A stretch of 45,932 nucleotides of DNA, taken from Minisyncoccota bacterium. Lineage in GTDB: Bacteria > Patescibacteriota > Minisyncoccia > Phycocordibacterales > UBA12088. The stretch spans positions 1 to 45,932 of the forward strand of contig JAYRER010000023.1 in the NCBI GenBank assembly GCA_041908795.1. The letters run 5' to 3'. Below, piece after piece: positions 12,462 to 43,374 of this stretch (positions within the stretch are counted from its first letter, which is position 1; the number at the start of each line of letters is the position of its first letter). The notes below the pieces were generated by a model. It had not been told where the DNA came from and did not search any database. It saw nothing but the letters and a program-made list of their open reading frames with translations. The position numbers and the translations under genes were made by a program.

Positions 12462-13042
12462 AAAAGATCCTCATCATCCTTGGTCACCCTCGCTCGCAGA
12501 GTTTCACCGGCGCTCTTGTTGAGGCGTACGCCAATGGAGCCAAGCGGGCGGGTGCAACGGTAGAAATACTCCGTATTGGTGAAATGTCGTTCGATCCCAT
12601 ACTCCGCGCAGGCTATGCGGAAATACAGGAGCTTGAGCCTGACCTTGTGCACTTTCAGGAAGCAATCACACGTGCCGAACATCTCGTCTTCGTCTACCCA
12701 ACGTGGTGGGGAGGACCACCCGCTCTCCTGCGAGACCTTCTTGAACGAGCGGTTCTGCCAGGTTTCGGCTTCAAGTACCATAAGAACGACCCATTTTGGG
12801 ATAAACTTCTTAAGGGCAAATCAGCACGCATCATCACCACCATGGACGCACCCTACTGGTACTACCGTTTGGTATTTGGAGCACCGGGGGATCGGATGCT
12901 CAAGAATGCCGTCCTTAATTTCTGTGGGGTACGACCTGTACGATTCACACACGTAAGTGGCATGCGTGCTAAAAGTGATGCGTGGCGGACAAATGTGATT
13001 ACTAAGATACAACACTTGGGTGAGCATGAGGGACGCGCATAA
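12458..13042 (+). CDS. flavodoxin-fold NAD(P)H-dependent oxidoreductase (Flavodoxin_2/KefF-like)
   Basis: Starts MKKILIILGHPRSQSF and contains YPTWWGGPPALLR, typical of the NAD(P)H dehydrogenase (quinone) fold. The start overlaps the sufC stop. Confidence 0.75.
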   Translation: MKKILIILGHPRSQSFTGALVEAYANGAKRAGATVEILRIGEMSFDPILRAGYAEIQELEPDLVHFQEAITRAEHLVFVYPTWWGGPPALLRDLLERAVLPGFGFKYHKNDPFWDKLLKGKSARIITTMDAPYWYYRLVFGAPGDRMLKNAVLNFCGVRPVRFTHVSGMRAKSDAWRTNVITKIQHLGEHEGRA

Positions 13043-13083: not shown

Positions 13084-14745
13084 TTACAAGATAAGTTTCT
13101 TGGTTGTTACATGCCTCTTAGTATACAAGGTACCAAGCATACTAGTGGGTACCTTCACCACACACAGGTTCAGTTCCCGAGCGGTTATGGCCACATGTGT
13201 AAGCGGCATGAAGCAAGAACAGACAATTCCCTTCATGTTTCCCATGTAGGGAATCCACGTACTTGGCACATGATGTGTTACCACGACACACCCCTTGGGA
13301 AATGGGCCACGATATGAATCAGGATCCCTCACCGCAACCACTTGACCTGAGGTGTGTGCCCCAATGATAAGCTCCACCTCGTCACCTACGTCATGTGGCT
13401 GTACACCGATCACGCTATGGGGTAGTTCTTGCTCGTATCTCGTGTCTGCTTCGCTAAAATTTCTATCGGCATACTCTTCATAGGTACAAAAGGCCATAGC
13501 GGGGTTGGTGCGCACCTCTGCACGCAGGGGAGTAATTGTGCGCATAAAATGCCGTTTCCAAACATTAGTAAGTGTATCGTTTGGGTAACATTCCACATCG
13601 ATATTTTCTGACAGTTCATACTCTTGTGGGAGCGCGTAGGTGGACCTTGTGCGTGTGAGGATCATTTGATTAAGCTCTGCAATCTGTAAACGATCGAACG
13701 CAAACTGACACGCTTGTATTGAAAATCGTTCGATTGATGGTGTAAATGACTTCGCCTCCTCCCATAATACCTTTTCTATTGATCTCGCTTTGAAACTTCG
13801 TGCGAATGCACTGTACCATGACTGGTTACTGAAGTAGCGTCTTTTCGCATCGCTCTCTGTTACAATGTTACCCGTACGCAAACGTCGAAATGGTACTGAA
13901 CCGCCTCCCAAGGACATAGTCGTATGGTAGTGGTGCGCATGAGCAAAAAGGAACTCTAGCAGTGAAAAGGAAAGACATGAAAGCTTTCCGAATGCTTCCG
14001 CGTATTGATCGTACTCATGCCGCATGTCACCAGCGATTGCTTCAAGCGATGCGGTATGAAGAGAGGTCGGAGCTATTGTGACCGGCCGAACTTGAACCAG
14101 CCAGAGTTGTTCACCGTCATATACCCACTCCGCATCTATGCGATACGGACAGTGGGACTGTACGTGCGCAAGCATGAGTTGCAGTTTCTCTCTCAGAGTG
14201 GATGTAAGGAGAAAGTCTTGCATGTCATCGTGTGCAGTTCCATCTAAAGGGAACAGTACTGTTTTTGTGCCAGCCCCACCTTCGACAACCTCCTTGGCAG
14301 TTTGGGCATAGGAAAGTAATGCGTGTTTGTAAAAGTAAAGCCACGGGTAGAAAATAACCCCACCGCATGTAGAGTTAACGTATGGCATTACCAGTAGATG
14401 GACTGGGGGGTGCGTTTCTAATGCCGCTGCACGCGCCTTGTTATTGTTGTATATTTCAAGCACCATTTCCGCCACATCGCCTGCAGGTGTCGGGCCAGAG
14501 GTGAGAAACATACCAGCATAGGAGGATTCGTGACCGTCCTCACACACAAGTGCACTTCTCACAATGTAGTGTTGCTTTGCGGTTTGTTGTACAAAGTTAT
14601 CCACTAACACCACACGTGTCTTTTCTTCCAAAATGCTGTCCTCATCTAGGTACAGCATATCCGGTACAGCAATCCCTTTCCGCGCTAAATCAAGCAATGT
14701 TGTGTACTTTGTTGAGGTGGCGCTTTTTGTTTGTATACCGAACAT
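13084..14745 (-). CDS. PEP-utilising enzyme family phosphotransferase (ATP-grasp PPDK_N-like N-terminus plus C-terminal swivel His domain)
   Basis: 553 aa. The N-terminus IVRSALVCEDGHESSYAGMF resembles the pyruvate phosphate dikinase nucleotide-binding domain. The C-terminus PLTHVAITARELNLCVV resembles the phospho-His mobile domain. There is no TIM-barrel domain. Confidence 0.7.
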   Translation of the reverse strand: MFGIQTKSATSTKYTTLLDLARKGIAVPDMLYLDEDSILEEKTRVVLVDNFVQQTAKQHYIVRSALVCEDGHESSYAGMFLTSGPTPAGDVAEMVLEIYNNNKARAAALETHPPVHLLVMPYVNSTCGGVIFYPWLYFYKHALLSYAQTAKEVVEGGAGTKTVLFPLDGTAHDDMQDFLLTSTLREKLQLMLAHVQSHCPYRIDAEWVYDGEQLWLVQVRPVTIAPTSLHTASLEAIAGDMRHEYDQYAEAFGKLSCLSFSLLEFLFAHAHHYHTTMSLGGGSVPFRRLRTGNIVTESDAKRRYFSNQSWYSAFARSFKARSIEKVLWEEAKSFTPSIERFSIQACQFAFDRLQIAELNQMILTRTRSTYALPQEYELSENIDVECYPNDTLTNVWKRHFMRTITPLRAEVRTNPAMAFCTYEEYADRNFSEADTRYEQELPHSVIGVQPHDVGDEVELIIGAHTSGQVVAVRDPDSYRGPFPKGCVVVTHHVPSTWIPYMGNMKGIVCSCFMPLTHVAITARELNLCVVKVPTSMLGTLYTKRHVTTKKLIL

Positions 14746-25386: not shown

Positions 25387-25458
25387 TGCGCGTGCTTGGA
25401 ATCGGACCAAGGACCTCTGTCTTATCAGGACAGCGTTCTACCACTGAACTACACGCGC
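25387..25458 (-). tRNA. tRNA-Ile(GAU)
   Basis: Cloverleaf: acceptor GCGCGTG/CACGCGC, D-arm GTTC-AGTGGTA-GAAC, anticodon loop CTGATAA, T-arm CTTGG-TCCGATT-CCAAG. No encoded CCA. Flanked by complementary strands CAGAAAACCATG / CGTGGTTTTCTG. Confidence 0.9.
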
Positions 25459-25530
25459 ACGAAAGAAACTATACCGAAGAAAAAGAGCATGGTTTTCTGA
25501 TGCGAGCGAGCGAACCGTTTGTATGATCCA

Positions 25531-25566
25531 TATCAGGACAATGTTCTACAACTGAACTACACGCGC
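25531..25566 (-). pseudogene. 5' half of a decayed tRNA-Ile copy
   Basis: GCGCGTGTAGTTCAGTTGTAGAACATTGTCCTGATA is the acceptor, D-arm and 5' anticodon stem-loop, ending inside the anticodon loop. Confidence 0.6.
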
Positions 25567-25732: not shown

Positions 25733-26623
25733 CCTGGCCTTGCGGCCATTCGTTCAAAATCCCTCCGGTCTTTCCCGGCGTCAGCACCGATTTAAAGCTC
25801 GTGTGCTTACTTTCTTGTCCTCGTACGAGGGACAAGAATCGACTCACTAAGTGTCGTACTGTCGTACGACACGTTCCAGTTGGAAGTAATCCACGAGCAG
25901 CTTCCGCTACCCGTGCCTTGTTACGACTTACGCCCTGTTACCGAACTTACCGTAGGCCCGAATGAATCGGGACGTCGGGTACTCCCGGCTCCCTTGCGTT
26001 GACGGGCGGTGAGTACAAGACTCGAGAACGTATTCACCGCAGTATAGCTGACCTGCGATTACTAGCGATTCCGACTTCATGTGGGCGAGTTGCAGCCCAC
26101 AATCCGAACTGAGGATACCTTTCTTAGGATTTGCTCAGGGTTACCCCGTCGCTTCCCGTTGTAGTACCCATTGTAGCGCGCGTGCCGCCCAAGGCATCAG
26201 AGGGCAATACGGACCTGGCGTCATCCCCACCTTCCTCCCAAAAAGGGCAGTCTCGCCTGACACTTGTAACAGACGACAGGGGTTGCGTTCGTTGCCCGAC
26301 TTAACGGTACAATTCAAACCACGAACTGACGACGGCCATGCAGCACCTGCCTAGCTGTCCGAAGAGGGCTCACGTTTCTGCGAGCTTTCAGCTAGGTTTC
26401 AAGCCTTGGTGAGGTTCTTCGCTTATCGACGAATTAAGCCGCACGCTCCACCGCTTGTGCGAGTCCCCGTCTATTCCTTTGAGTTTTAAGCTTGCGCTCG
26501 TACTACCCAGGCGCTTCACTTAACGCGTTAGCTTCGCCACGGAGAGGGTCGATACTCCCCATAGCTAGTGAAGATCGTTTAGGGCGTAGACTACCGGGGT
26601 CACGTTGTTACTGCGTACCAACG

Positions 26624-26675
26624 AATTCAAAATGCAAAATGCAAAAGTCAAAATGACAATGCAAAATGCAAAAGC
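26624..26675. repeat. heptad AAAATGC-type A-rich array (single arm) inside the 16S intron
   Basis: aattc-aaaatgc-aaaatgc-aaaagtc-aaaatga-caatgc-aaaatgc-aaaagc. It shares the identical 20-mer GTCAAAATGACAATGCAAAA (26647-26666) with 41036-41055 in the 23S gene. Confidence 0.8.
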
Positions 26676-26747
26676 TTCGTCGCCACACGATGTGAACATT
26701 TCTGCCACATTCTCTATGTCGCCATAGAGGTCGGACTATATCTTCAC

Positions 26748-26778
26748 CCTGCACTTTCTGTTTTTGAGAAAGTGCAGG
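26748..26778. repeat. mini hairpin of the GCACTTTCT family
   Basis: CCTGCACTTTCT-gtttttg-AGAAAGTGCAGG, a perfect 12-bp stem. Confidence 0.85.
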
Positions 26779-27057
26779 AGCTTGGCGTTTAGTCTCTGAG
26801 GGTTCTCCGAACGTAATCGGAGCCTTCCCTGCTGATTGTCTGGTGCCCTGTCATAGACAGAGCGCACTTGTTGGGTTTCCCCTTAAGTACACCAGAGTTT
26901 CCAGCATATAGCCAAGTTGCTTTTGCACATTGCTGTGCAATGAGACACTGTTCGCACTCGTCTCACTCCAACCGGAGTGAGCACTTGCGGTGTCACAAAC
27001 ATGTGCGGGAGGCGATGCGAACTTGAACAAGTTGCGGAGCAAAAACGGAGTGTCTGA

Positions 27058-27090
27058 CCCAGCACTTTCTGTGTTTGAGAAAGTGCTGGG
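27058..27090. repeat. mini hairpin of the GCACTTTCT family
   Basis: CCCAGCACTTTCT-gtgtttg-AGAAAGTGCTGGG, a perfect 13-bp stem. Confidence 0.85.
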
Positions 27091-27388
27091 GAGTTGCCGT
27101 TTTTGCGATACGCAACGAGTATCAAGTTCGTTCGCCGGAGCACGGTTTGTGCAACGCGACGTGCGAACGTTTATCTAATCCCGTTCGCTACCTACGCTTT
27201 CGTGTCTCAGCGTCAGGAACGAGCCAGTGCACTGCCTTCGCCTTTGGTATTCCCCACGATATCAACGGATTTCACCCCTACACCGTGAGTTCTATGCACC
27301 TCTCTCGCCCTCGAGTTCTACCGTTTCCTCCGCAGTTCCGAGGTTGAGCCCCGGGCTTTAACAGAAGACTAATAGAACCGCCTACACA

Positions 27389-27419
<31 letters not shown>

Positions 27420-27731
27420 CGAGGCATCCGTATGACCGCTCCTGCTGGCACGGAATTGGGAGCCTCTTATTCATGAGGTAACGTCAAAATTCCTCCCTCA
27501 TAAAAGCAGTTTACGACCCGAAAGCCTTCATCCTGCACGCGGCGTCGCTCCGTCAGGCTTTCGCCCATTGCGGAATATTCTCGGCTGCAGCCTCCCGTAG
27601 GAGTATGGGCCGTGTCGCAGTCCCATCGGTGGGGGTCAGGCTCTCACCTCCCCTACGCGTCATAGCCTTGGTAGGCCATTACCCTACCAACTAGCTGATA
27701 CGACGCAGGCCGCTCCCGGTCCGCGAAAGCT

Positions 27732-28001
27732 TTACCCGGCACTTTCCAAACTTCGTTGTACGCGCTTTCTCAAATGTCCGAGACCGGCTCCATAGTTCTT
27801 CAGAGCCGCTTCTCGTTCACGAGCATCTTGCTCATTGAGATATGCTTCGTAATAAACTAGATGCCATGGTTTATGTTTAGCTGTAAAGTCACGAGAAGCG
27901 CGCTCTGAATTATGATGTTTCAGCCGCTGTTTCAAGTCACTCGTAAAGCCAGTGTAGAGAAAGCGCGTTGATGCACCTTTCAATACATAGACATAATACA
28001 T
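27732..28001 (-). CDS. small GIY-YIG (URI-domain, COG2827-like) nuclease encoded inside the 16S gene
   Basis: 89 aa (MYYVYVLKG...[17 protein letters not shown]...EREAALK) with GIY, YIG, Arg and Glu motif positions all present. It is on the same strand as the rRNA. The last 4 codons and the stop lie in the 3' arm of the closing stem. Confidence 0.8.
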
Positions 28002-28037
28002 GGCAATATTCTAGCACAAAGACTAGAAAGTGCCGGG
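27735..28037 (-). mobile_element. 303-bp hairpin-bounded insertion in 16S (helix 9 region, ~E. coli 180-195) carrying the GIY-YIG gene
   Basis: Arms CCCGGCACTTTC (27735-27746) and GAAAGTGCCGGG (26-37 of the 28000 block: 28026-28037) are exact reverse complements. No group I core motifs are present. The flanks align to the 16S helix 8-10 region. Confidence 0.75.
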
Positions 28038-28152
28038 ACCATCGGGAATTATCTAACCTTTCGGCTAGTTATGCCCGAGACCGGGGTACGTACCTACGTG
28101 TTACTACCTCGTCTGCCGTGGGTCTAAACCCACTCGACTTGCATGCCTTATC

Positions 28153-28191
<39 letters not shown>

Positions 28192-28412
28192 AAACAATAA
28201 CCGTTACCGAGGTCTTACGACCCTTCCACGGCTGTTTAAGTTGAACTCAAACAATAGTTAAGGAATCATTTTTTGAACTGTGTCGGTAGCCTATTGCTAG
28301 GCGTCCGACACGGACGGAACAAAAGAGAACACAATCTTTTTTGTTCCATGTGTTTGCATGTATGAAGTTGTCAATGACCCATCAAAAACTGCCCCTTCTT
28401 GGCAGTGGAACA

Positions 28413-36924: not shown

Positions 36925-37104
36925 TAGCGCTTGCGCGCGCACCAAGCACGTCTGGGTGTACCCAAAACGTCACATTGTCAGATTTCCCAACAGGAAACTC
37001 GACGAATTAGTACACCTCGGCTCAACACATCACTGTGCTTCCACCTGGTGCCTATCAACGTAATAGTCTCTTACGGGTCTCAATTGATGCCTATTCTTGG
37101 AGTT

Positions 37105-37137
<33 letters not shown>

Positions 37138-37216
37138 GTTCCCGACATAGCTACCGAGCAGTGCAGCTGGCGCTACAGCTCGTACACCAGAGGTCAGTTC
37201 ATCCCGGTCCTCTCGT

Positions 37217-37977
37217 CGCATATACGTTCCATTGTTTCCAATGGGGCAGACTATATCTTCACCCAACCGTAGCTGGGTGACGGCATGTTATGGGAACCAT
37301 TGCGATATCCCCATCTTCACTTCAACATGTAGTCGAAGTTTCAGTCGTTACGGGGTCAAATCCAAGCTGTTTCAATAGCCCATCTCGCTTTCTTTTTCGA
37401 TGCGCTGAATAATTTTCATTTTGCACCGACAAAGTCAAATCTACAAGTTTGCGTATTTGCATATCCGATAGCAGTGAATATTTGACTGAAGCCAACATAT
37501 CACACGCCTCGATCATGGCAGCTACTTGCTTGTGTTTGAACCGCACATAGGGCGCAACTGTTTTGAGAATGTCACGTACTCTGGCAAAGCCATTGATACG
37601 CAACTCGGACATGCCATCGTTTCGTCTCGACACATATCCAATTCCCAACACCTCACGCATCCAATAGAGCGGTTGCTCATGGCGGGTGTCTTGATAGAGG
37701 CAAATAGTTGCCATAAAACGAAAGCCACGCGATGTGTCACTTCGTTTTTTGATCTGCAGCATTAAGCTGCCATCACCATCAAGAAAACCTGCCAGATATG
37801 CTATGTCACACTTGGATCGACTTCCCACGGTATTATCATATACCTTGTTCTGGTCCTCAAGCAAGTTGATTCGTACAGGACCGTACACAATTCAACTCTT
37901 AGCCCAGAGGGCACACAGACTTCACCGTTATAAGCCGCGTTGTCATCATGGATTACTCCATGAAGTAGCAATTTCTT
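37217..37977 (-). mobile_element. group I intron inside the sarcin-ricin loop of 23S (CCTTAGT^ACGAGAGGACC), carrying a LAGLIDADG gene
   Basis: Removing 37217-37977 restores TCCTTAGTACGAGAGGACCGGG. There is a U at -1 and the intron ends in G. Core motif GGGTGAAGATATAGTCTGCCCC lies near the 3' end. Confidence 0.8.
37322..37888 (-). CDS. LAGLIDADG homing endonuclease, single-motif (I-CreI-like)
   Basis: 188 aa with one LAGFLDGDGS motif. It lies entirely within the intron on the rRNA strand. The true start may be downstream of 37888. Confidence 0.85.
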   Translation of the reverse strand: MYGPVRINLLEDQNKVYDNTVGSRSKCDIAYLAGFLDGDGSLMLQIKKRSDTSRGFRFMATICLYQDTRHEQPLYWMREVLGIGYVSRRNDGMSELRINGFARVRDILKTVAPYVRFKHKQVAAMIEACDMLASVKYSLLSDMQIRKLVDLTLSVQNENYSAHRKRKRDGLLKQLGFDPVTTETSTTC

Positions 37978-38040
37978 ACTAAGGACAAATCTCCTCAAGA
38001 ATCGACGCCTACAGCAGATAGAGAACCAACCTGTCTCACG

Positions 38041-38439
38041 CATATGTTTCATTCGCACGTGTGCGAACTTCGCTCCCAATTACTTAGGAGTATCGGACTG
38101 TAATTTCTTCTCACTGCACAAGGTGCATTGAGAAGGTCGACGTTCAGTCTCTACGGGCCCCAGCACTTTCTAATAGTTCAAATCATGCGGACAGTACATA
38201 ATCTAAAAATAGATCAGCAAGGTCCATGTGTTTTGCACTTCTAGAAAGTGCTGGGTTCCCTCGGTATTGTCCCTGCGCTCGTTGGTAATTAGTGCATGGA
38301 TTTCACCGATACAAGTCGACGACGCACTTGTATGTCGCCACACAAGGCCGCCGTGTTGTTTCTACTCAATGTCTAAGCAAGGTCTTCCCTTGCCGCCGGG
38401 TTCAAACGGGTTCGGGTCGCAAGTTTTCTTGTAACCCAA
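38041..38439 (-). mobile_element. ORF-less group I-like intron at the L2593 (I-CreI) site of 23S (AACCGT^CGTGAGACAG)
   Basis: Removing 38041-38439 restores GGGTTCAAACCGTCGTGAGACAGG. There is a U at -1 and a terminal G. It has a core-like GAGAAGAAATTACAGTCCGATAC. Confidence 0.7.
38159..38255. repeat. 97-bp hairpin element of the GCACTTTCT family nested in the L2593 intron
   Basis: CCCAGCACTTTCTA (38159-38172) / TAGAAAGTGCTGGG (38242-38255), a perfect 14-bp inverted repeat. Confidence 0.85.
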
Positions 38440-38465
38440 ACGGTTTGAACCCAGCTCACGTACCT

Positions 38466-38499
<34 letters not shown>

Positions 38500-39243
38500 C
38501 ATTGTTTGTTAACCTTGTCTTCCGACAAGGATCAGACTATGCCTTCACCGTATTCACACTGTCACCAATGTGAACCTTAGGTGCGAGCCGTATGATAGAA
38601 TTCATTGTGATAATCCTATCTCACGACAGTACCAAACTACTGTCGATCAGTCGTTACAGGAGGTATATTCTTGGATCATGATCACATAGTTCAAACGACG
38701 GTTTTTGGACCGAAGGTTGAACCGAGACAATGCATCCGCCTTGCGAGCTACTCGCACAAGGTCGCCGCGACTCCTCACGGGAGTTGCGAGTATCGCTCGT
38801 GCAAGCACTACTTGCCTACGCTTCACATGTACAAACGGCTCGATGAGTGCAAGGAGCGTATCAACATGCTGTTGATCGCGCACAATCCACTCATGGGTCG
38901 TGCGATTTTTTCGCACATACCCTATACCGTACGTATCTGTGAGCCATGAAACCGGTTTTTTATCACGTTGTGTGATTTTTACAGTTACACGGACACGGAA
39001 GCCGTATTTTTTCTCTTTATGACGTTCAATGGTTGCCATAATGGCACCATCACCATCAATAAATCCGGCAAGATAGGCTCTTTGGGCTTCAGAAAATACC
39101 TTTCCCACGACGTTAGCTGGCATACACGCAGTGTACCTGGGACCTCATTGGTACCCAAGCGTACTATTGTGTATACGTAAGCCTTCGACGTTTTGGACTC
39201 GTATCTTACCCGTACGTTTCCATACGGGAGAGAAGGTAAGTTT
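38500..39243 (-). mobile_element. group I-like intron in 23S domain V (GGGGCTGGAGA^AGGTCCCAAGGG, ~E. coli 2533), carrying a LAGLIDADG gene
   Basis: The flanks align to GGGGCUGAAGUAGGUCCCAAGGG. The core motif GGTGAAGGCATAGTCTGATCC is present and the intron ends in G. The -1 exon base is A, not U, so the boundaries are +/-2 nt. Confidence 0.65.
38647..39123 (-). CDS. LAGLIDADG homing endonuclease, single-motif (I-CreI-like)
   Basis: 158 aa with one [10 protein letters not shown] motif, inside the intron on the rRNA strand. Confidence 0.85.
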
Positions 39244-39319
39244 TCTCCAGCCCCAGGATGAGGTGAGCCGACATCGAGGTGCCGAACTCCGCCGTCGCTA
39301 TGGACGCTTGGGCGGAACT

Positions 39320-39352
<33 letters not shown>

Positions 39353-39949
39353 AATCTCTGGCCGCGTCTAATGCGTACCATCGGTTCACTAGGTTCTGCT
39401 TTCGCACCTGCTCGACACGTACGTCTTGCAGTCAAGCCAGCTTATGCCCTTACACTATCGGCACGGTTTCCATTCGCGCCTAGCTGACCTTTGAACCCCT
39501 CCGTTACTTTTTAGGAGGGTACCGCCCCAGTAAAACTGCCTGCCACGCACTGTTCCTCACGGGTTTTGCCCGTGCAGGTTAGAATTTGCACACGTACAGA
39601 GTGGTATTTCACTGACGACTCCACAACCCCCAAGAGGGCCGCTTCAAAGTCTCCCACCTATGCTACGCAGTAAGCACGCAAACCCAATACGAAGCTGCAG
39701 TAAAGCTCCACGGGGTCTTTCTGTCTAGCTGCAGGTAACCGGCATCTTCACCGGTATTGCGTTTTCACCGAGCCACTCCCCGAGACAGTTGCCCAATCGT
39801 TACACCATTCGTGCGCGTCGGAACTTACCCGACAAGGAATTGCGCTACCTTAGGACGATTATAGTTATCGCCGACATTGACCAGGGCTTACAGCGCCCAG
39901 CTTAAGCACATTCTATGCACAACAGTATCGCTTACGAACTTTGTTGAGG

Positions 39950-40113
39950 GGCGAAGTTGGTTCGCCCTTTTTATTCTTTCTAAGACCATCGTTCGATGAT
40001 CTCGTGTATCTTTTTTTCCAACCAAGGCCGCATCGCAAACACTCCAACGACAAAGGTTAGGAAAAGCAACGGGTACACATCATTCATCTTTACTTCCCCT
40101 CATACACATAATT
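39950..40113 (-). other. 164-nt insertion closed by a 12-bp stem near the tip of the helix-68-equivalent of 23S
   Basis: ACTTTGTTGAGG (39938-39949) and CCTCAACAAAGT (40114-40125) are exact reverse complements. The flanks align just 5' of the helix-69 sequence (GATAACTATAATCGTCC). Confidence 0.7.
39980..40087 (-). CDS. candidate 35-aa hydrophobic peptide ORF inside the 23S insertion
   Basis: Hand translation gives MNDVYPLLFLTFVVGVFAMRPWLEKKIHEIIERWS*. GAGGGGAAGT lies 4 nt upstream of the ATG and a GGGCGAA/TTCGCCC hairpin follows the stop. It is too short for the supplied ORF track. Confidence 0.35.
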   Translation of the reverse strand: MNDVYPLLFLTFVVGVFAMRPWLEKKIHEIIERWS

Positions 40114-40274
40114 CCTCAACAAAGTCCGCAAGCGGGTATTGCGCACACAATGTGCCTAAACCAGCACTGGTTGACCTTCTGGCATTGGTCAGGTGTCACC
40201 CCCTATACATCCTCTTACGAGTTCGCAGGGAGCTGTGTTTTTGGTAAACAGTCGTCAGGCAAACTTTCGCTGCG

Positions 40275-40437
40275 CCCGGCACATCGCACTACGTGCGATG
40301 TGATATCAAAGTTCAAATATCAAAAGGCAAAAGTACGGTGTCGCTGTCGCGACGACTTTTACATTTTGACCTACAATTTTGATTCTTGCATTTTGATTTT
40401 TGACATCGGCTCATCACATGCAATGTGATGTGCCGGG
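40275..40437. repeat. 163-bp composite hairpin insertion (CCCGGCAC-type closing stem, AT-rich heptad arms) in the helix-63-equivalent of 23S
   Basis: CCCGGCACATC (40275-40285) / GATGTGCCGGG (40427-40437). The interior arms are ATATCAAAGTTCAAATATCAAAAGGCAAAAG ... CTTTTACATTTTGACCTACAATTTTGATTCTTGCATTTTGATTTTTGA, around a GTCGC-tgtc-GCGAC tip. Confidence 0.8.
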
Positions 40438-41010
40438 AGGCCTTATCCCTAAGTTACGGCCGCTTTTTTGCCGAGTTCCTTGGGGAGCTATCACTCGTTC
40501 GTCTTGGTCTTCTCGACCTTCCCACCTGTGTCGGTTTGCGGTACGGACTCTCTATAGCTAGAGCTTAGAAGATTTTCTTGGAAGCGCGCTCCTTCAAATT
40601 GTCGTTGGGCGAACCCGCCAACTTTCCGCTCCGCTTGGAATCAGCATTAAAGCAAGGTGCCCGGATTTACCTAAGCACCGTCCTCACGGCACGGACGACA
40701 AGCCAATAAGTCGCTTGAAGTACAGCCCTCCGTCCCTCCATCGCACTATAAAGAGGTGATGGAATATTAACCATCTGTCCATCGCCTCCCCCTTTCGGGA
40801 TCGGCTTAGGCCCGACTAACCCTTGGCTGATCATCATGGCCAAGGAAACCTTGGGATTTCGACGTGCGGGGATTTCACCCGCATTGCGGTTACTCGCTCC
40901 GGCATTCTCACTTCCGTACGCTCCACCATGGGTTTCCCTTTTGGCTTCACAGCAGAACGGAACGCTCTCCTACCACGCCGCTCGCATCTCGCTGCGCTCA
41001 AAGCTTCACG

Positions 41011-41299
41011 TAAATTCAAAACTCAAAATGCAAAGGTCAAAATGACAATGCAAAAAATCAAAGGTCTTTTGCTAATGAACTCTAATGGTCGGCCAAGTCA
41101 CGAGAATTGGCCAAAGTATTGGTGGATCCGACAGGATTGCGTACCTGTGACCTCTTGGATACCATCCAAGCGCTCTAATGAATGCACGTGTGCACCACCC
41201 GCATTCACCTACTGAGCTACGGACCCTTAGAATTCAAGAGCGGGAATTTTAATTTTTTAAGTTGCACTTTTGATTTTTGCGATTTGATTTTTGAATTTG
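41011..41299. other. 289-bp insertion in the 23S helix-45 hairpin (~E. coli 1170), AT-rich arms flanking a tRNA-like core
   Basis: AAATTCAAAA (41012-41021) pairs with TTTTGAATTT (41289-41298). The flanks (TCGTTCGCATCTC / GAGATGCGAGCGG) extend the native hairpin that follows GCTAAGCATGGTACCGAAACTGCGG. Confidence 0.75.
41120..41226 (-). ncRNA. tRNA-like element (degenerate tRNA-Thr GGU-like) embedded in the 23S gene
   Basis: Reverse complement reads GGGTCCG-TA-GCTC-AGTAGGT[30-nt hairpin GAATGC..GCATTC]ATTA-GAGC-G-CTTGG-ATGGTAT-CCAAG-AGGTC-ACAGG-TACGCAAT-CCTGT-CGGATCC-A-CCA. It is a full cloverleaf with a D-loop insertion, an aberrant 8-nt T-loop and an encoded CCA. Confidence 0.6.
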
Positions 41300-41949
41300 T
41301 GTTGCTTCGAATACAATGAGATGCGAACGACATCCGCAGTTTCGGTACCATGCTTAGCCCCGATCATCTTCGGCGCAGAGTCTCTAGATCAGTGAGCTGT
41401 TACGCTTTCTTTGAATGGTGGCTGCTTCTAAGCCAACATCCTGATTGTCACAGAAACTCCACCTCCTTAGTTTGCTACTTAGCATGGATTTAGGGACCTT
41501 AACTGGCGGTCTGGGCTGTTTCCCTTTTGACCAATGGAGCTTAGCCCCCACAGTCTGACTGCCATACTTTTGACCTCTGGTATTCGGAGTTTGATAGGTC
41601 TGACGAGATTGCTCCCTATTCAGACCTTCCAGTGCTCTACCCCCAAAGGGAACATATGACGCTAGCCCTAAAGCTATTTCGGAGAGAACCAGCTATTACG
41701 AGGTTCGATTAGCTTTTCACTCCTTACCACAAGTCATCCGATCGTGTCGCACTGCGAACCGGTTCGGGCCTCCACGGCCTGTTACAGCCGCTTCACCCTG
41801 CTCATGGTAAGCTCACCTCGATTCGGGTCTTACGCGCGCGACTGAATCGCCCTATTCAGACTCGCTTTCGCTGCGGCTCCGGGGGTCGCCCCTTAGCCAT
41901 AGCCACGTGCGTAAACTCGCCGGATCATTCTTCAATAGGCACGCCGTCA

Positions 41950-42044
41950 CCCGTCACTTTCTAAGACTCCAATATTCGCAAACTTTCGAGACATCTCGTG
42001 CACTCAAACATTTGCAATACGTTCGAGTTCTAGAAAGTGACGGG
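41950..42044. repeat. 95-bp hairpin element of the GCACTTTCT family in the 23S helix-25 position (~E. coli 545)
   Basis: CCCGTCACTTTCTA (41950-41963) / TAGAAAGTGACGGG (42031-42044), a perfect 14-bp inverted repeat. The flanks align to CAAGCAGTGGGAGC...TGACTGCGTACC of E. coli. Confidence 0.85.
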
Positions 42045-42094
42045 CTCCGACTCCTTGTAAGCATACGGTTTCAGTTCTATTTCACTCCCCTCCC

Positions 42095-42140
<46 letters not shown>

Positions 42141-42380
42141 TTGAAGAGTATTTAGCCTTGGGTGTTAGTCCACCCGGATTCACGCAGGCTATTCATGTCC
42201 CGCGCTACTCAGGAACGGTAGCAAGAGAGACGTGTTTGTTTTCGCGTACGGGGCTGTTACCCGCTGGGGCCGCCCTTTCCAGAGCGTTCCGCTAACAAAC
42301 ACATTTTATGACTCTCCTCGTTGCCGACACTACCGCCCTACAACCCCCATGCGCTCCGCTCGCACCACGCGCTCGCTCGC

Positions 42381-42507
42381 TAAACTCAAAAGTTAAAAGG
42401 GGAAATTCAAAAGTATGGCGTCGCTTTCGCAATCAAAATTATTGCAAATTCCGCAACGCGGAATTTGACCGCACTTTTGCATTTTTATTTTTCACTTTTG
42501 ATATTTG
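42381..42507. repeat. AT-rich heptad-arm hairpin insertion in 23S domain I
   Basis: The left arm (ctcaaaagt, ttcaaaagt, atcaaaatt) opposes the right arm (acttttgca, cacttttgat). It is flanked by the GC-rich stems GCGCTCGCTCGC / GCGAGTGTGCGC. Confidence 0.7.
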
Positions 42508-42583
42508 CGAGTGTGCGCAGCGTAAGCGGAGCACACGAGTTTGGGCTTCTTCCGTTTCGCTCGCCGCTACTAAGGAAATACCG

Positions 42584-42631
42584 GGATTTTTTACCGTACC
42601 GGCAAAAAAATGCCGTCACGGCAAAAAATCC
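42584..42631. repeat. 48-nt A/U-tract three-way insertion in 23S domain I
   Basis: GGATTTTTT-ACCGTACCGGC-AAAAAAA-TGCCGTCACGGC-AAAAAATCC. It is absent from the corresponding E. coli segment (CAACCGAGATTCCCCCAGTAGCGG). Confidence 0.55.
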
Positions 42632-42686
42632 GTTATTGGTTTCTTTTCCACCAGGTACTAAGATGTTTCAATTCCCTGGGTTTGCT

Positions 42687-42785
42687 CCCGGCACTTTCTA
42701 AAAATCTGACGTTCCCAGACACACACAAGGCACCACAGCCATCATGTTTTGTCTGCAAAAATACCGATTCTTAGAAAGTGCCGGG
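42687..42785. repeat. 99-bp hairpin element of the GCACTTTCT family near the 23S 5' end
   Basis: CCCGGCACTTTCTAA (42687-42701) / TTAGAAAGTGCCGGG (42771-42785), a perfect 15-bp inverted repeat. Confidence 0.9.
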
Positions 42786-43374
42786 TCCTTGAGGTTTGCT
42801 CAAGGGGGTTTCCCCATTCGGAGATCTCCGGATCAAAGGTTGCTAGACACCTCCCCGAAGCTTATCGCAGTCGTACCACGTCCTTCATCGCCTCTTCAAG
42901 CCAAGGCATCCACCGTATGCCCTTAGATTTCCTGTCGGGAAATCTAACAATTGTCGAATCCACGATACCGCCTCAATACCCGCAAAGGTATCGCATTGGA
43001 CGCACGACCACCACCGCATTGGGGTCTTTACTTCAGTGGAATTCAACTTGTATCCGGTGCGCTAAACGCTAACGCTACCGGACAGGTGTATGCTTTTTGC
43101 CCAGGAGCACCCCTGCTCCCGGGACTTACCCGCGTCCCGCACTAGGCACTTTCGCACCTACCGGGACCTATGTGATTGTCAACGTTCCGCCCTCCAGCCG
43201 CTTAAGTCATTCCGTCTCCGTTTCAACCCACATCATTGCCTGTGGAGTGTACCGAGAAAGAATGTTGATTGGTAAAGAAAAAACCGCTTGCGCGGTCTGC
43301 GTAGCCCCACACGTACAACGGCTAGCCGACCCGCGTTTGCTGTGAGCTGATAACACCCTTCATAAGGTAGAGAC

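Follow-up and report, generated by a model that had tools for sequence, protein, structure and literature searches.

What is a tRNA-shaped segment doing inside a helix of a bacterial 23S rRNA gene? We addressed this question in contig JAYRER010000023.1 of a Minisyncoccota bacterium (assembly GCA_041908795.1), a stretch of 45,932 nucleotides (nt) that was analysed as a whole and is hereafter called the window, in which a cloverleaf lies on the rRNA strand within an insertion at helix 45. The original prediction, made from the sequence, described it as a degenerate tRNA-Thr(GGU) that might recruit RNase P or RNase Z and thereby punctuate the precursor, or that might be a mobile sequence derived from a tRNA. 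The reading that we favour, with a probability of roughly 0.5, is that the element is a non-decoding, tRNA-Ala-derived module carried by an RNase III-type intervening sequence (IVS), where it would be an accessory substrate of RNase P. The host is a bacterium of the candidate phyla radiation (CPR), of Paceibacteria/Parcubacteria type, as seen from the related loci based on ribosomal protein L10 and from its bacterial-type neighbour genes.

We scored the element with Infernal against the Rfam tRNA family RF00005, a check that the original prediction had proposed, and obtained a minus-strand match (41226->41123) of 48.2 bits, above the gathering cut-off of 29, with an E-value of 2.2e-7 (whole window, all families). 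The full length is aligned except for 31 nt of the D-loop; the score reaches 48.2 bits because the hairpin in the D-loop is treated as an insertion, and the 'evalue' mode of Rfam gives the same element 18 bits over a partial alignment only. As an observation in its own right, the disagreement between the two modes (48.2 versus 18 bits) implies that loop insertions can hide tRNA-like elements from routine scans. Our own tRNA covariance model (R1), built from 53 unrelated tRNAs, gave the element 51.2 bits, and ARAGORN, which made no tRNA call on the native sequence, called a tRNA-Thr(ggt) of 77 nt when the 30-nt insert was deleted. On the rRNA strand the element reads GGGUCCG-UA-GCUC-AGUAGGU[30 nt]A-GAGC-G-CUUGG-AUGGUAU-CCAAG-AGGUC-ACAGG-UACGCAAU-CCUGU-CGGAUCC-A-CCA, so that the complete cloverleaf predicted from 41226 to 41120 holds in each of its stems, with all 21 stem pairs intact. 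The discriminator A and the encoded CCA are likewise read in the sequence, and the tRNA-Leu and tRNA-Ile of the window do lack an encoded CCA. When the 107 nt were folded alone, the minimum free energy (MFE) structure was exactly the cloverleaf with the hairpin in its D-loop, at -46.8 kcal/mol and a z-score of -4.7, which none of 200 shuffled sequences equalled. A reading as a transfer-messenger RNA (tmRNA) was rejected, since ARAGORN reported none and the anticodon arm is complete. An intron of the archaeal bulge-helix-bulge type in the D-loop was set aside on the ground that the host is a bacterium (L7/L12, FtsW, SecDF).

Both of the departures from a normal tRNA that had been pointed out are real. 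The D-loop is not of normal size, as it carries a 30-nt hairpin, and in the fold of the 107 nt the helix in the D-loop is able to pair with G18 and G19. The T-loop, UACGCAAU, has 8 nt with A55 and lacks UUC, where the canonical loop has 7 nt and U54-U55-C56. On the grounds of A55, the 8-nt T-loop, the D-loop helix set against G18 and G19, and the conflict between alanine and threonine identity described below, a decoding role is unlikely; the element is a genuine tRNA-shaped but probably non-decoding look-alike. All four recognisable lesions lie in loops, for which the chance with four random hits is estimated at ~0.04, given that 35 of the 77 positions are loop; this lends weak support to the view that the shape is of consequence.

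The identity of the element was judged from its acceptor stem (G1-C72, G2-C71, G3.U70, U4-A69, C5-G68, C6-G67, G7-C66, followed by A73) and from its anticodon arm. The bacterial alanine set consists of A73, G2-C71, G3.U70, G4-C69 and G20, and the threonine set of G1-C72, C2-G71, G4-C69, G5-C68, G34, G35 and U36 (PMC9976931). The major alanine determinants G2-C71, G3.U70 and A73 are present in the element, and the minor ones, G4-C69 and G20, are absent, their places being taken by U4-A69 (U4 thus still being paired) and U20. From the threonine set it has the near-universal G1-C72 and the anticodon GGU only; C2-G71, G4-C69 and G5-C68 are not found in it. In a sample of 252 tRNAs from the loci that we fetched, a G.U pair at 3-70 occurred in 83 of 85 tRNA-Ala versus 3 of 167 other tRNAs, and the tRNA-Thr (10 of 10) had C2-G71 and U32...A38 loops. 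We also searched viral contigs with an anticodon-arm pattern, CTTGNATGGYATNCAAGNGGTC, that allows either C or U at position 36 and hence GGC or GGU. It matched at least 120 loci, and among the matches listed 122 of 122 had GGC, and GGU did not occur; of the extracted matches, 78 were called tRNA-Ala(ggc) by ARAGORN, the remainder lying mostly at contig ends. The element matches the arm CUUGN-AUGGCAU-NCAAG followed by AGGUC except for C36->U, so that its present anticodon is not that of alanine and the ancestry is nonetheless supported.

The best global matches of the element were all tRNA-Ala(GGC). When it was compared with 41 tRNA-Ala(GGC) at the columns that are at least 90% conserved, the differences were C36U, U55A, one additional T-loop nucleotide, U17A and U4-A69 for G4-C69, to which the 30-nt D-loop insert is additional. 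What it shares with tRNA-Ala(GGC) is G2-C71, G3.U70, A73, the A32/U38 loop context, the CUUGN/NCAAG anticodon stem and the AGGUC variable loop, and what sets it apart is the GGU anticodon, U4-A69, U55A, the 8-nt T-loop and the 30-nt insert. The body of the element thus appears to derive from tRNA-Ala(GGC) and not from tRNA-Thr, the simplest history being a copy with C36->U and damaged elbow loops. In other words, the anticodon GGU of the predicted tRNA-Thr(GGU) stands, but the acceptor, A73 and the anticodon arm are of the tRNA-Ala(GGC) type (122 GGC versus 0 GGU). The case calls for caution in annotation, as the element passes the Rfam tRNA threshold and its anticodon would name a tRNA-Thr, and its identity elements are those of tRNA-Ala.

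These data also bear on the possibility of a working tRNA nested in the rRNA. Such a tRNA would be freed in the manner of a spacer tRNA, would be charged either by alanyl-tRNA synthetase (via G3.U70) or by threonyl-tRNA synthetase (via G35 and U36), and would decode ACY codons. The high model score, the perfect anticodon stem-loop with U33 and A37, and the ACCA end together with G3.U70/A73 are what one would expect of such a molecule, and mistranslating anticodon variants of tRNA-Ala are known (PMC10543346, PMC12084884). However, U55 is lost, the T-loop has 8 nt, the 30-nt D-loop helix can sequester G18 and G19, the minor alanine determinants G4-C69 and G20 are missing, and the element is absent from the sister species (see below); moreover, the tRNA would place alanine at threonine codons. 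We consider a working tRNA very unlikely.

The location of the element inside a helix-45 insertion was borne out by blastn against the E. coli 23S rRNA, which anchors window position 41334 to ec1166 and position 40974 to ec1188 (ec denotes E. coli 23S position numbering), with ~338 nt extra between them. The IVS is built in layers, namely, a basal stem, a pair of 51-nt arms, a three-way apex with the cloverleaf, and a small adjoining hairpin. The long A/U-rich flanking arms that had been noted do pair, forming a duplex of 51 nt with 76% complementarity between 41012-41062 and 41248-41298, and the direct-repeat families D1, D2 and D4 connect the A-rich arm to two other insertions of the 23S gene. 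The IVS is predicted to fold into an elongated rod that branches three ways at its apex, with an MFE of -121.3 kcal/mol (z = -8.0), and enforcing the full cloverleaf within it gives the same energy. By analogy, we take the insertion to be an RNase III-type IVS, probably belonging to a modular family found widely among 23S genes of the Paceibacteria-type CPR lineage. This is in line with the CPR literature, where short insertions at the helix-45 site are assigned to RNase III-type IVSs (PMC11270868).

Under the reading that we favour, a gene copy of the tRNA-Ala(GGC) type would have entered the apex of the IVS and would since have become non-decoding through C36->U, through U55->A with an extra T-loop base, and through the 30-nt hairpin in the D-loop. 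The element lies within the 23S gene and has the same orientation, so that the pre-23S transcript includes it. To judge by its anatomy and by the helix-45 IVSs already known, the IVS would be cut by RNase III at the basal and arm duplex, which would leave a fragmented 23S rRNA. The stack of 7 + 5 bp formed by the acceptor and T stems, together with A73-CCA, has the features of an RNase P substrate, and the element would probably be cut 5' of G41226 and trimmed at its 3' side. Such a cut would be an accessory, t-element-like step in dismantling the IVS, whose excision would not depend on it, and the element would have no part in translation. An encoded CCA disfavours RNase Z, whose action on the element is unlikely; cleavage by RNase P, to go by the modelled structure, is plausible.

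We read helix 45 in 18 related loci by means of the conserved gene order L10-L7/L12-hypothetical-23S. A native hairpin of 26-28 nt was found in nine loci (in two of them, L161 and L162, with the same sequence) and an IVS in nine, the window counted; the presence of an IVS is sporadic and its content differs widely. Seven of these nine IVSs have no tRNA-like element (L003, L004, L006, L010, L033, L034 and L168). The only close relative is L003, with identities of 95% in the 23S gene beside the site, 89% on L10 and 82% on the neighbouring protein, the nearest homologues of which in a database of 5.8 billion proteins came from the L003 genome only; its helix-45 IVS is palindromic, has 99 nt and is of a type different from that of the window. 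In L010, L033 and L034 the basal stem is near identical to that of the window, the periodic arms differ and the apex is a small GC hairpin. The IVS of L168 has 448 nt and other content, and that of L006 holds an open reading frame (ORF) of 60-72 amino acids after a Shine-Dalgarno sequence, with two hydrophobic segments. In L006 the ORF is surrounded by a perfect 21-bp basal stem (14238-14524; MKEWIAKRRTVIPFVIAIIFGELLPILQGRHMTPQDWSEHTITVLIAAAIIAVVIGRIKK). Rfam reported no tRNA at the gathering threshold in any of these loci, and our own model, run with filters off on the IVS-bearing relatives, found no tRNA-like element except in L156.

The cloverleaf is thus not conserved in related helix-45 insertions, as the original prediction had suggested examining: it is absent from all seven loci named above, and the element of L156 is not shown to be homologous. 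Since seven of nine helix-45 IVSs and two sister IVSs of the same 23S gene are without it, the cloverleaf is not what removes such insertions. The idea that punctuation by a tRNA is needed for excision likewise fails, as the IVS already possesses RNase III-type helices in its base and arms and seven of the nine IVSs, including that of the closest relative, do without the element.

On the other hand, other tRNA mimics do occur in the rRNA transcripts of relatives. The helix-45 IVS of L156 (GCA_947259245.1) has 444 nt and a basal stem that differs from that of the window and is common to L156 and L006. Inside it, on the rRNA strand, lies a decayed tRNA-like element (12901-12978) with an acceptor stem paired at 7 of 7 positions (including G2.U71 and G3.U70), a D-arm GCUC/GAGC, A73 and a canonical T-arm (GUAAGG-UUCAAAU-CCUUAC), but with a spoiled anticodon arm and no CCA. 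It scored 26.6 bits with our own model (E-value ~1e-4 in 512 kb; non-tRNA background at most 14 bits). Neither Rfam nor ARAGORN gave a match in this IVS, and the element was recognised only by a T-arm/acceptor scan combined with our own covariance model; elsewhere in the 1.5 Mb of fetched loci that it covered, the T-arm scan returned tRNAs and apparent tRNA fragments only. A further mimic lies in the 23S-5S spacer and is common to L156 (16627-16696) and L164 (7793-7863), with 26.8 and 35.6 bits, respectively. The two copies are ~80% identical with diverging flanks and are not reported by Rfam; the T-loop UUCGACU is conserved, the 'anticodon' loop has 5 nt, compensatory changes are seen at 4-69 and 51-63, and the copy of L164 is followed by A-CCA. 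This spacer mimic resembles the Haloferax t-element upstream of 5S rRNA and has the look of a t-element in bacteria. No tRNA mimic is present in the 23S-5S spacer of the window itself.

Because relatives carry these other non-decoding mimics in their rRNA transcripts, a role as a processing signal has to be taken into account. In its strong form, the cloverleaf would be a selected signal, maintained since a cut by RNase P is needed for removal of the IVS or for maturation of the 23S fragments, as a counterpart of t-elements and of mitochondrial tRNA punctuation. The preserved stems and broken loops would agree with this, as would the CCA that is encoded here and not in the two genuine tRNAs of the window, the occurrence of the L156 element at the same helix-45 site, and the conserved spacer mimic of L156 and L164 with its compensatory changes and 5-nt 'anticodon' loop; the archaeal t-elements upstream of 5S rRNA provide a precedent (PMC4326828). 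However, processing must proceed without a cloverleaf in seven of nine helix-45 IVSs and also in both sister IVSs that have the same arms, the element is not conserved in L003, and the elements of the window and of L156 are not demonstrably homologous. We regard selection for such a signal as quite improbable. A generalisation of the same theme would be that Paceibacteria-type CPR bacteria have time and again inserted non-decoding tRNA mimics into their rRNA transcripts (in the helix-45 IVS of the window and L156, and in the 23S-5S spacer of L156 and L164), RNase P cutting there to mature an interrupted 23S rRNA; we hold this to be improbable. If true, it would amount to a bacterial and intragenic tRNA punctuation, and G3.U70 with A73-CCA would make alanylation of a released fragment conceivable.

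Several observations weigh against the favoured reading of an accessory RNase P substrate. In the context of the IVS, the pairing probability of the acceptor stem is ~0.45, versus 0.8-0.9 for the other arms, and the predicted fold pairs the 5' leader up to position -1, which could lower cleavage by RNase P. The elbow formed by the T-loop and D-loop, which is also contacted by bacterial RNase P, is disrupted, and this too could lower cleavage. As to the loss of decoding, the deviation of the T-loop is weak evidence of non-function, because the genuine tRNA-Ile of the window also has an odd T-loop (C55). Furthermore, the element is found in a single genome, and the next genome, 82% identical on the neighbouring protein, is without it. 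The helix-45 element of L156, for which homology could not be demonstrated, is taken as independent.

A rival reading takes the element to be an inert pseudogene, that is, a copy of tRNA-Ala(GGC) that landed by chance in the IVS apex, decays neutrally and is degraded with the excised IVS, recognition by RNase P being nil or incidental. Its single occurrence and absence from the only close relative fit this view, and so do the loss of the invariant U55, the wrong length of the T-loop and the interrupted D-loop. Besides, the IVS apices of relatives hold unrelated cargo or none, and a decayed tRNA copy beside tRNA-Ile (25501-25566) indicates that tRNA pseudogenes arise around rRNA genes here. Nevertheless, neutral decay would not be expected to leave all four lesions in loops and 21 stem pairs intact (chance ~0.04) or to keep the A73-CCA end, and the two further mimics in relatives keep their acceptor and T stems and lose the anticodon loop. 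We consider an inert pseudogene unlikely, though it retains an appreciable chance.

The remaining explanation is a mobile repeat derived from a tRNA, akin to a short interspersed nuclear element (SINE) or a miniature inverted-repeat transposable element (MITE), or else an assembly chimera of a tRNA locus and the rRNA gene. Some mobility does exist, since the IVS modules in the 23S gene form repeated families, and an encoded CCA could indicate an RNA-mediated origin. However, neither the element nor its D-loop hairpin occurs a second time in the window (the hairpin being unique at up to 3 mismatches), and an exact 22-mer of the anticodon arm and variable loop had 0 matches in viral contigs and JGI metagenome contigs. 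The T-arm pattern gave one chance match in viral contigs, in a coding region, and Ala-type tRNAs with a D-loop insert of 18-46 nt were found in none of the viral contigs. An antisense ORF across the IVS, used as a proxy for a nucleotide search by look-up and by translated homology search, had no match, and blastn against phages, plasmids and E. coli returned generic tRNA similarity only (73-81%). With no second copy in the window, in viral or JGI contigs or in the translated search, the suggestion of a tRNA-derived mobile sequence found no backing. No independent assembly of the IVS was recovered: an exact look-up of the window's L7/L12 gave a 2.9-kb Logan contig that ends at the start of the 23S gene, and an exact look-up of the flanking protein had no match. 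A matching contig is present in SRR26835459. A chimera is unlikely because complementary arms and a basal stem flank the element symmetrically. We give both the mobile repeat and the chimera very little credence.

Table 1. Coordinates in the window of the tRNA-like element, its helix-45 IVS and the surrounding 23S rRNA gene.
Feature	Position	Strand	Basis or remark
tRNA-like cloverleaf including ACCA	41120..41226	-	RF00005, model R1, MFE fold, ARAGORN after insert deletion
Acceptor stem GGGUCCG/CGGAUCC	41226-41220 / 41130-41124	-	one pair is G3.U70
D-stem GCUC/GAGC	41217-41214 / 41175-41172	-	
30-nt hairpin GAAUGCGGGUGGUGCACACGUGCAUUCAUU in D-loop, between U20 and A21	41177..41206	-	Infernal, ARAGORN
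Anticodon arm CUUGG-AUGGUAU-CCAAG	41170-41154	-	anticodon GGU at 41163-41161
Variable loop	41153-41149	-	
T-arm, stem ACAGG/CCUGU	41148-41131	-	8-nt loop at 41143-41136
A73	41123	-	
CCA	41122-41120	-	
Whole helix-45 IVS, ~337 nt	40986..41322	-	replaces native helix-45 loop; blastn to E. coli 23S
Native helix-45 stem	41331-41323 / 40985-40977	-	
IVS basal stem, 5' strand AUCUCAUUGUAUUCGAAGC...	41299..41322	-	inverted repeat; pairs with 40986-41009
IVS basal stem, 3' strand ...GCUUUGAGCGCAGCGAGAU	40986..41009	-	inverted repeat
A-rich 5' arm, ~7-nt CAAAA-type repeats	41248..41298	-	inverted repeat, direct-repeat families
U-rich 3' arm	41012..41062	-	complementary to 41248-41298
Second apical hairpin UUGGCCAA-loop-UUGGCCGA, just 3' of cloverleaf	41089..41114	-	MFE and centroid folds of IVS
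Full 23S rRNA gene, ~5.95 kb	36990..42937 (3' end approximate)	-	Rfam large subunit (LSU) rRNA, blastn to E. coli 23S
LAGLIDADG_1 ORFs in 3' third of 23S gene (36990-39245)	37322-37888 and 38647-39123		in large insertions at ~ec2535/2537 and ec2596-2660
Sister IVS, ec1706-1775 site	40275..40437	-	CAAAA/UUUUG arms as in helix-45 IVS, small apical hairpin only
Sister IVS, ec270-284 site	42304..42541	-	CAAAA/UUUUG arms as in helix-45 IVS, without tRNA-like apex

The helix-45 IVS is one of many insertions in this 23S gene (Table 1). The single LSU match of Rfam ends at 39052, and the true gene is longer and roughly half insertion, with insertions at eight or more sites (~ec130, ec270-284, ec541-619, ec1166-1188, ec1706-1775, ec1856-1891, ec2535/2537 and ec2596-2660) and with two introns that carry LAGLIDADG ORFs; its terminal processing stem pairs 42928-42951 with 36974-36997 (24 nt, 92% complementary). 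A scan in the 'evalue' mode of Rfam found no weaker tRNA-like matches in the other 23S insertions of the window. Palindromic insertions of ~95 nt with conserved termini (CCCNGCACUUUCUA ... UUAGAAAGUGNNGGG) and variable interiors occur at 42687-42785, 41950-42044 and 38159-38255 in the window and at 14037-14135 in L003. This family thus occupies three sites in the 23S gene of the window and the helix-45 site in the sister species, a distribution which points to movement of IVS modules from one rRNA hairpin loop to another. IVS arms made of ~7-nt periodic repeats were seen in the window (41012-41298, 40302-40412, 42382-42510), in L010 (12460-12600, 13894-14035) and in L004 (7392-7472). The repeat motif of the arms is genome-specific, being of the CAAAA type in the window, the GUAURCG type in L010 and the AGUAGAA and GAGAAUG types in L004 and L033; in the window and L010 it recurs at different IVS sites within one 23S gene, and some basal stems, for instance CCGGUCGCAUCAUG...CAUGAUGCGACCGG, are found again in other species. 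The surrounding gene thus shows that the rRNA insertions of CPR bacteria are modular and fast-changing.

The rRNA genes of the window are unlinked, on one strand and in an unusual order, 23S-5S being followed by ~8 kb of protein genes and then by 16S-tRNA-Ile. The 16S gene (25879-28198), 2320 nt long, includes further extra sequence besides a group I intron (RF00028, 26712-26969, 87.9 bits). The real tRNA-Ile(GAU) at 25387-25458 has the T-loop UCCGAUU, with C55 replacing U55, and just upstream of it, in the spacer after the 16S gene, lies its decayed tandem copy (25501-25566, minus strand), which shares with it the 5' half GCGCGUGUAGUUCAGU.

Helix-45 IVSs that are excised from 23S rRNA by RNase III are known in Salmonella, Leptospira and Coxiella burnetii. 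The IVS of Coxiella carries an ORF (PMC4990558), and in CPR bacteria short 'IS' have been described at the sites 23IS2 and 23IS4 (PMC11270868). The IVS of the window resembles these RNase III-type IVSs in its site (ec1166-1188), in the extended stem that replaces the helix-45 loop, in its sporadic distribution and in its variable apical cargo, but differs in that its cargo is a complete tRNA-shaped element and that its excision is predicted. The word 'tRNA' is absent from the text of the systematic survey of rRNA insertions in CPR bacteria (PMC11270868), and in the literature that we searched we found no description of a tRNA-shaped element inside a bacterial 23S IVS.

A tRNA-like processing signal is known from the t-element upstream of 5S rRNA in Haloferax volcanii (PMC4326828). 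As in the t-elements of this archaeon and of plant mitochondria, the element of the window is a non-decoding tRNA mimic in an rRNA precursor and would be expected to be a substrate of tRNA end processing; however, the known t-elements lie in spacers beside mature ends, whereas this one lies inside a 23S helix. Moreover, the Haloferax t-element is cut by tRNase Z, while the encoded CCA argues against RNase Z in the window, where cleavage is predicted. In the mitochondria of Tetrahymena and Paramecium, a discontinuous LSU rRNA gene is reported to be interrupted by a tRNA gene (Heinonen et al. 1987). That arrangement and mitochondrial tRNA punctuation are similar to the present one in that a tRNA-shaped unit stands between two LSU parts in one transcript, but the ciliate case involves functional tRNA genes and rearranged rRNA pieces, whereas the element of the window is degenerate and sits in a hairpin IVS with a duplex cleavage site of its own. 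Helix-45 IVSs and tRNA-like processing signals are thus each known, and their combination in the window appears to be new as far as the searched literature shows. If RNase P does cleave the module, the fragmentation of CPR rRNA would be tied to the tRNA-processing machinery, and the locus would be a bacterial example of the theme of t-elements and tRNA punctuation.

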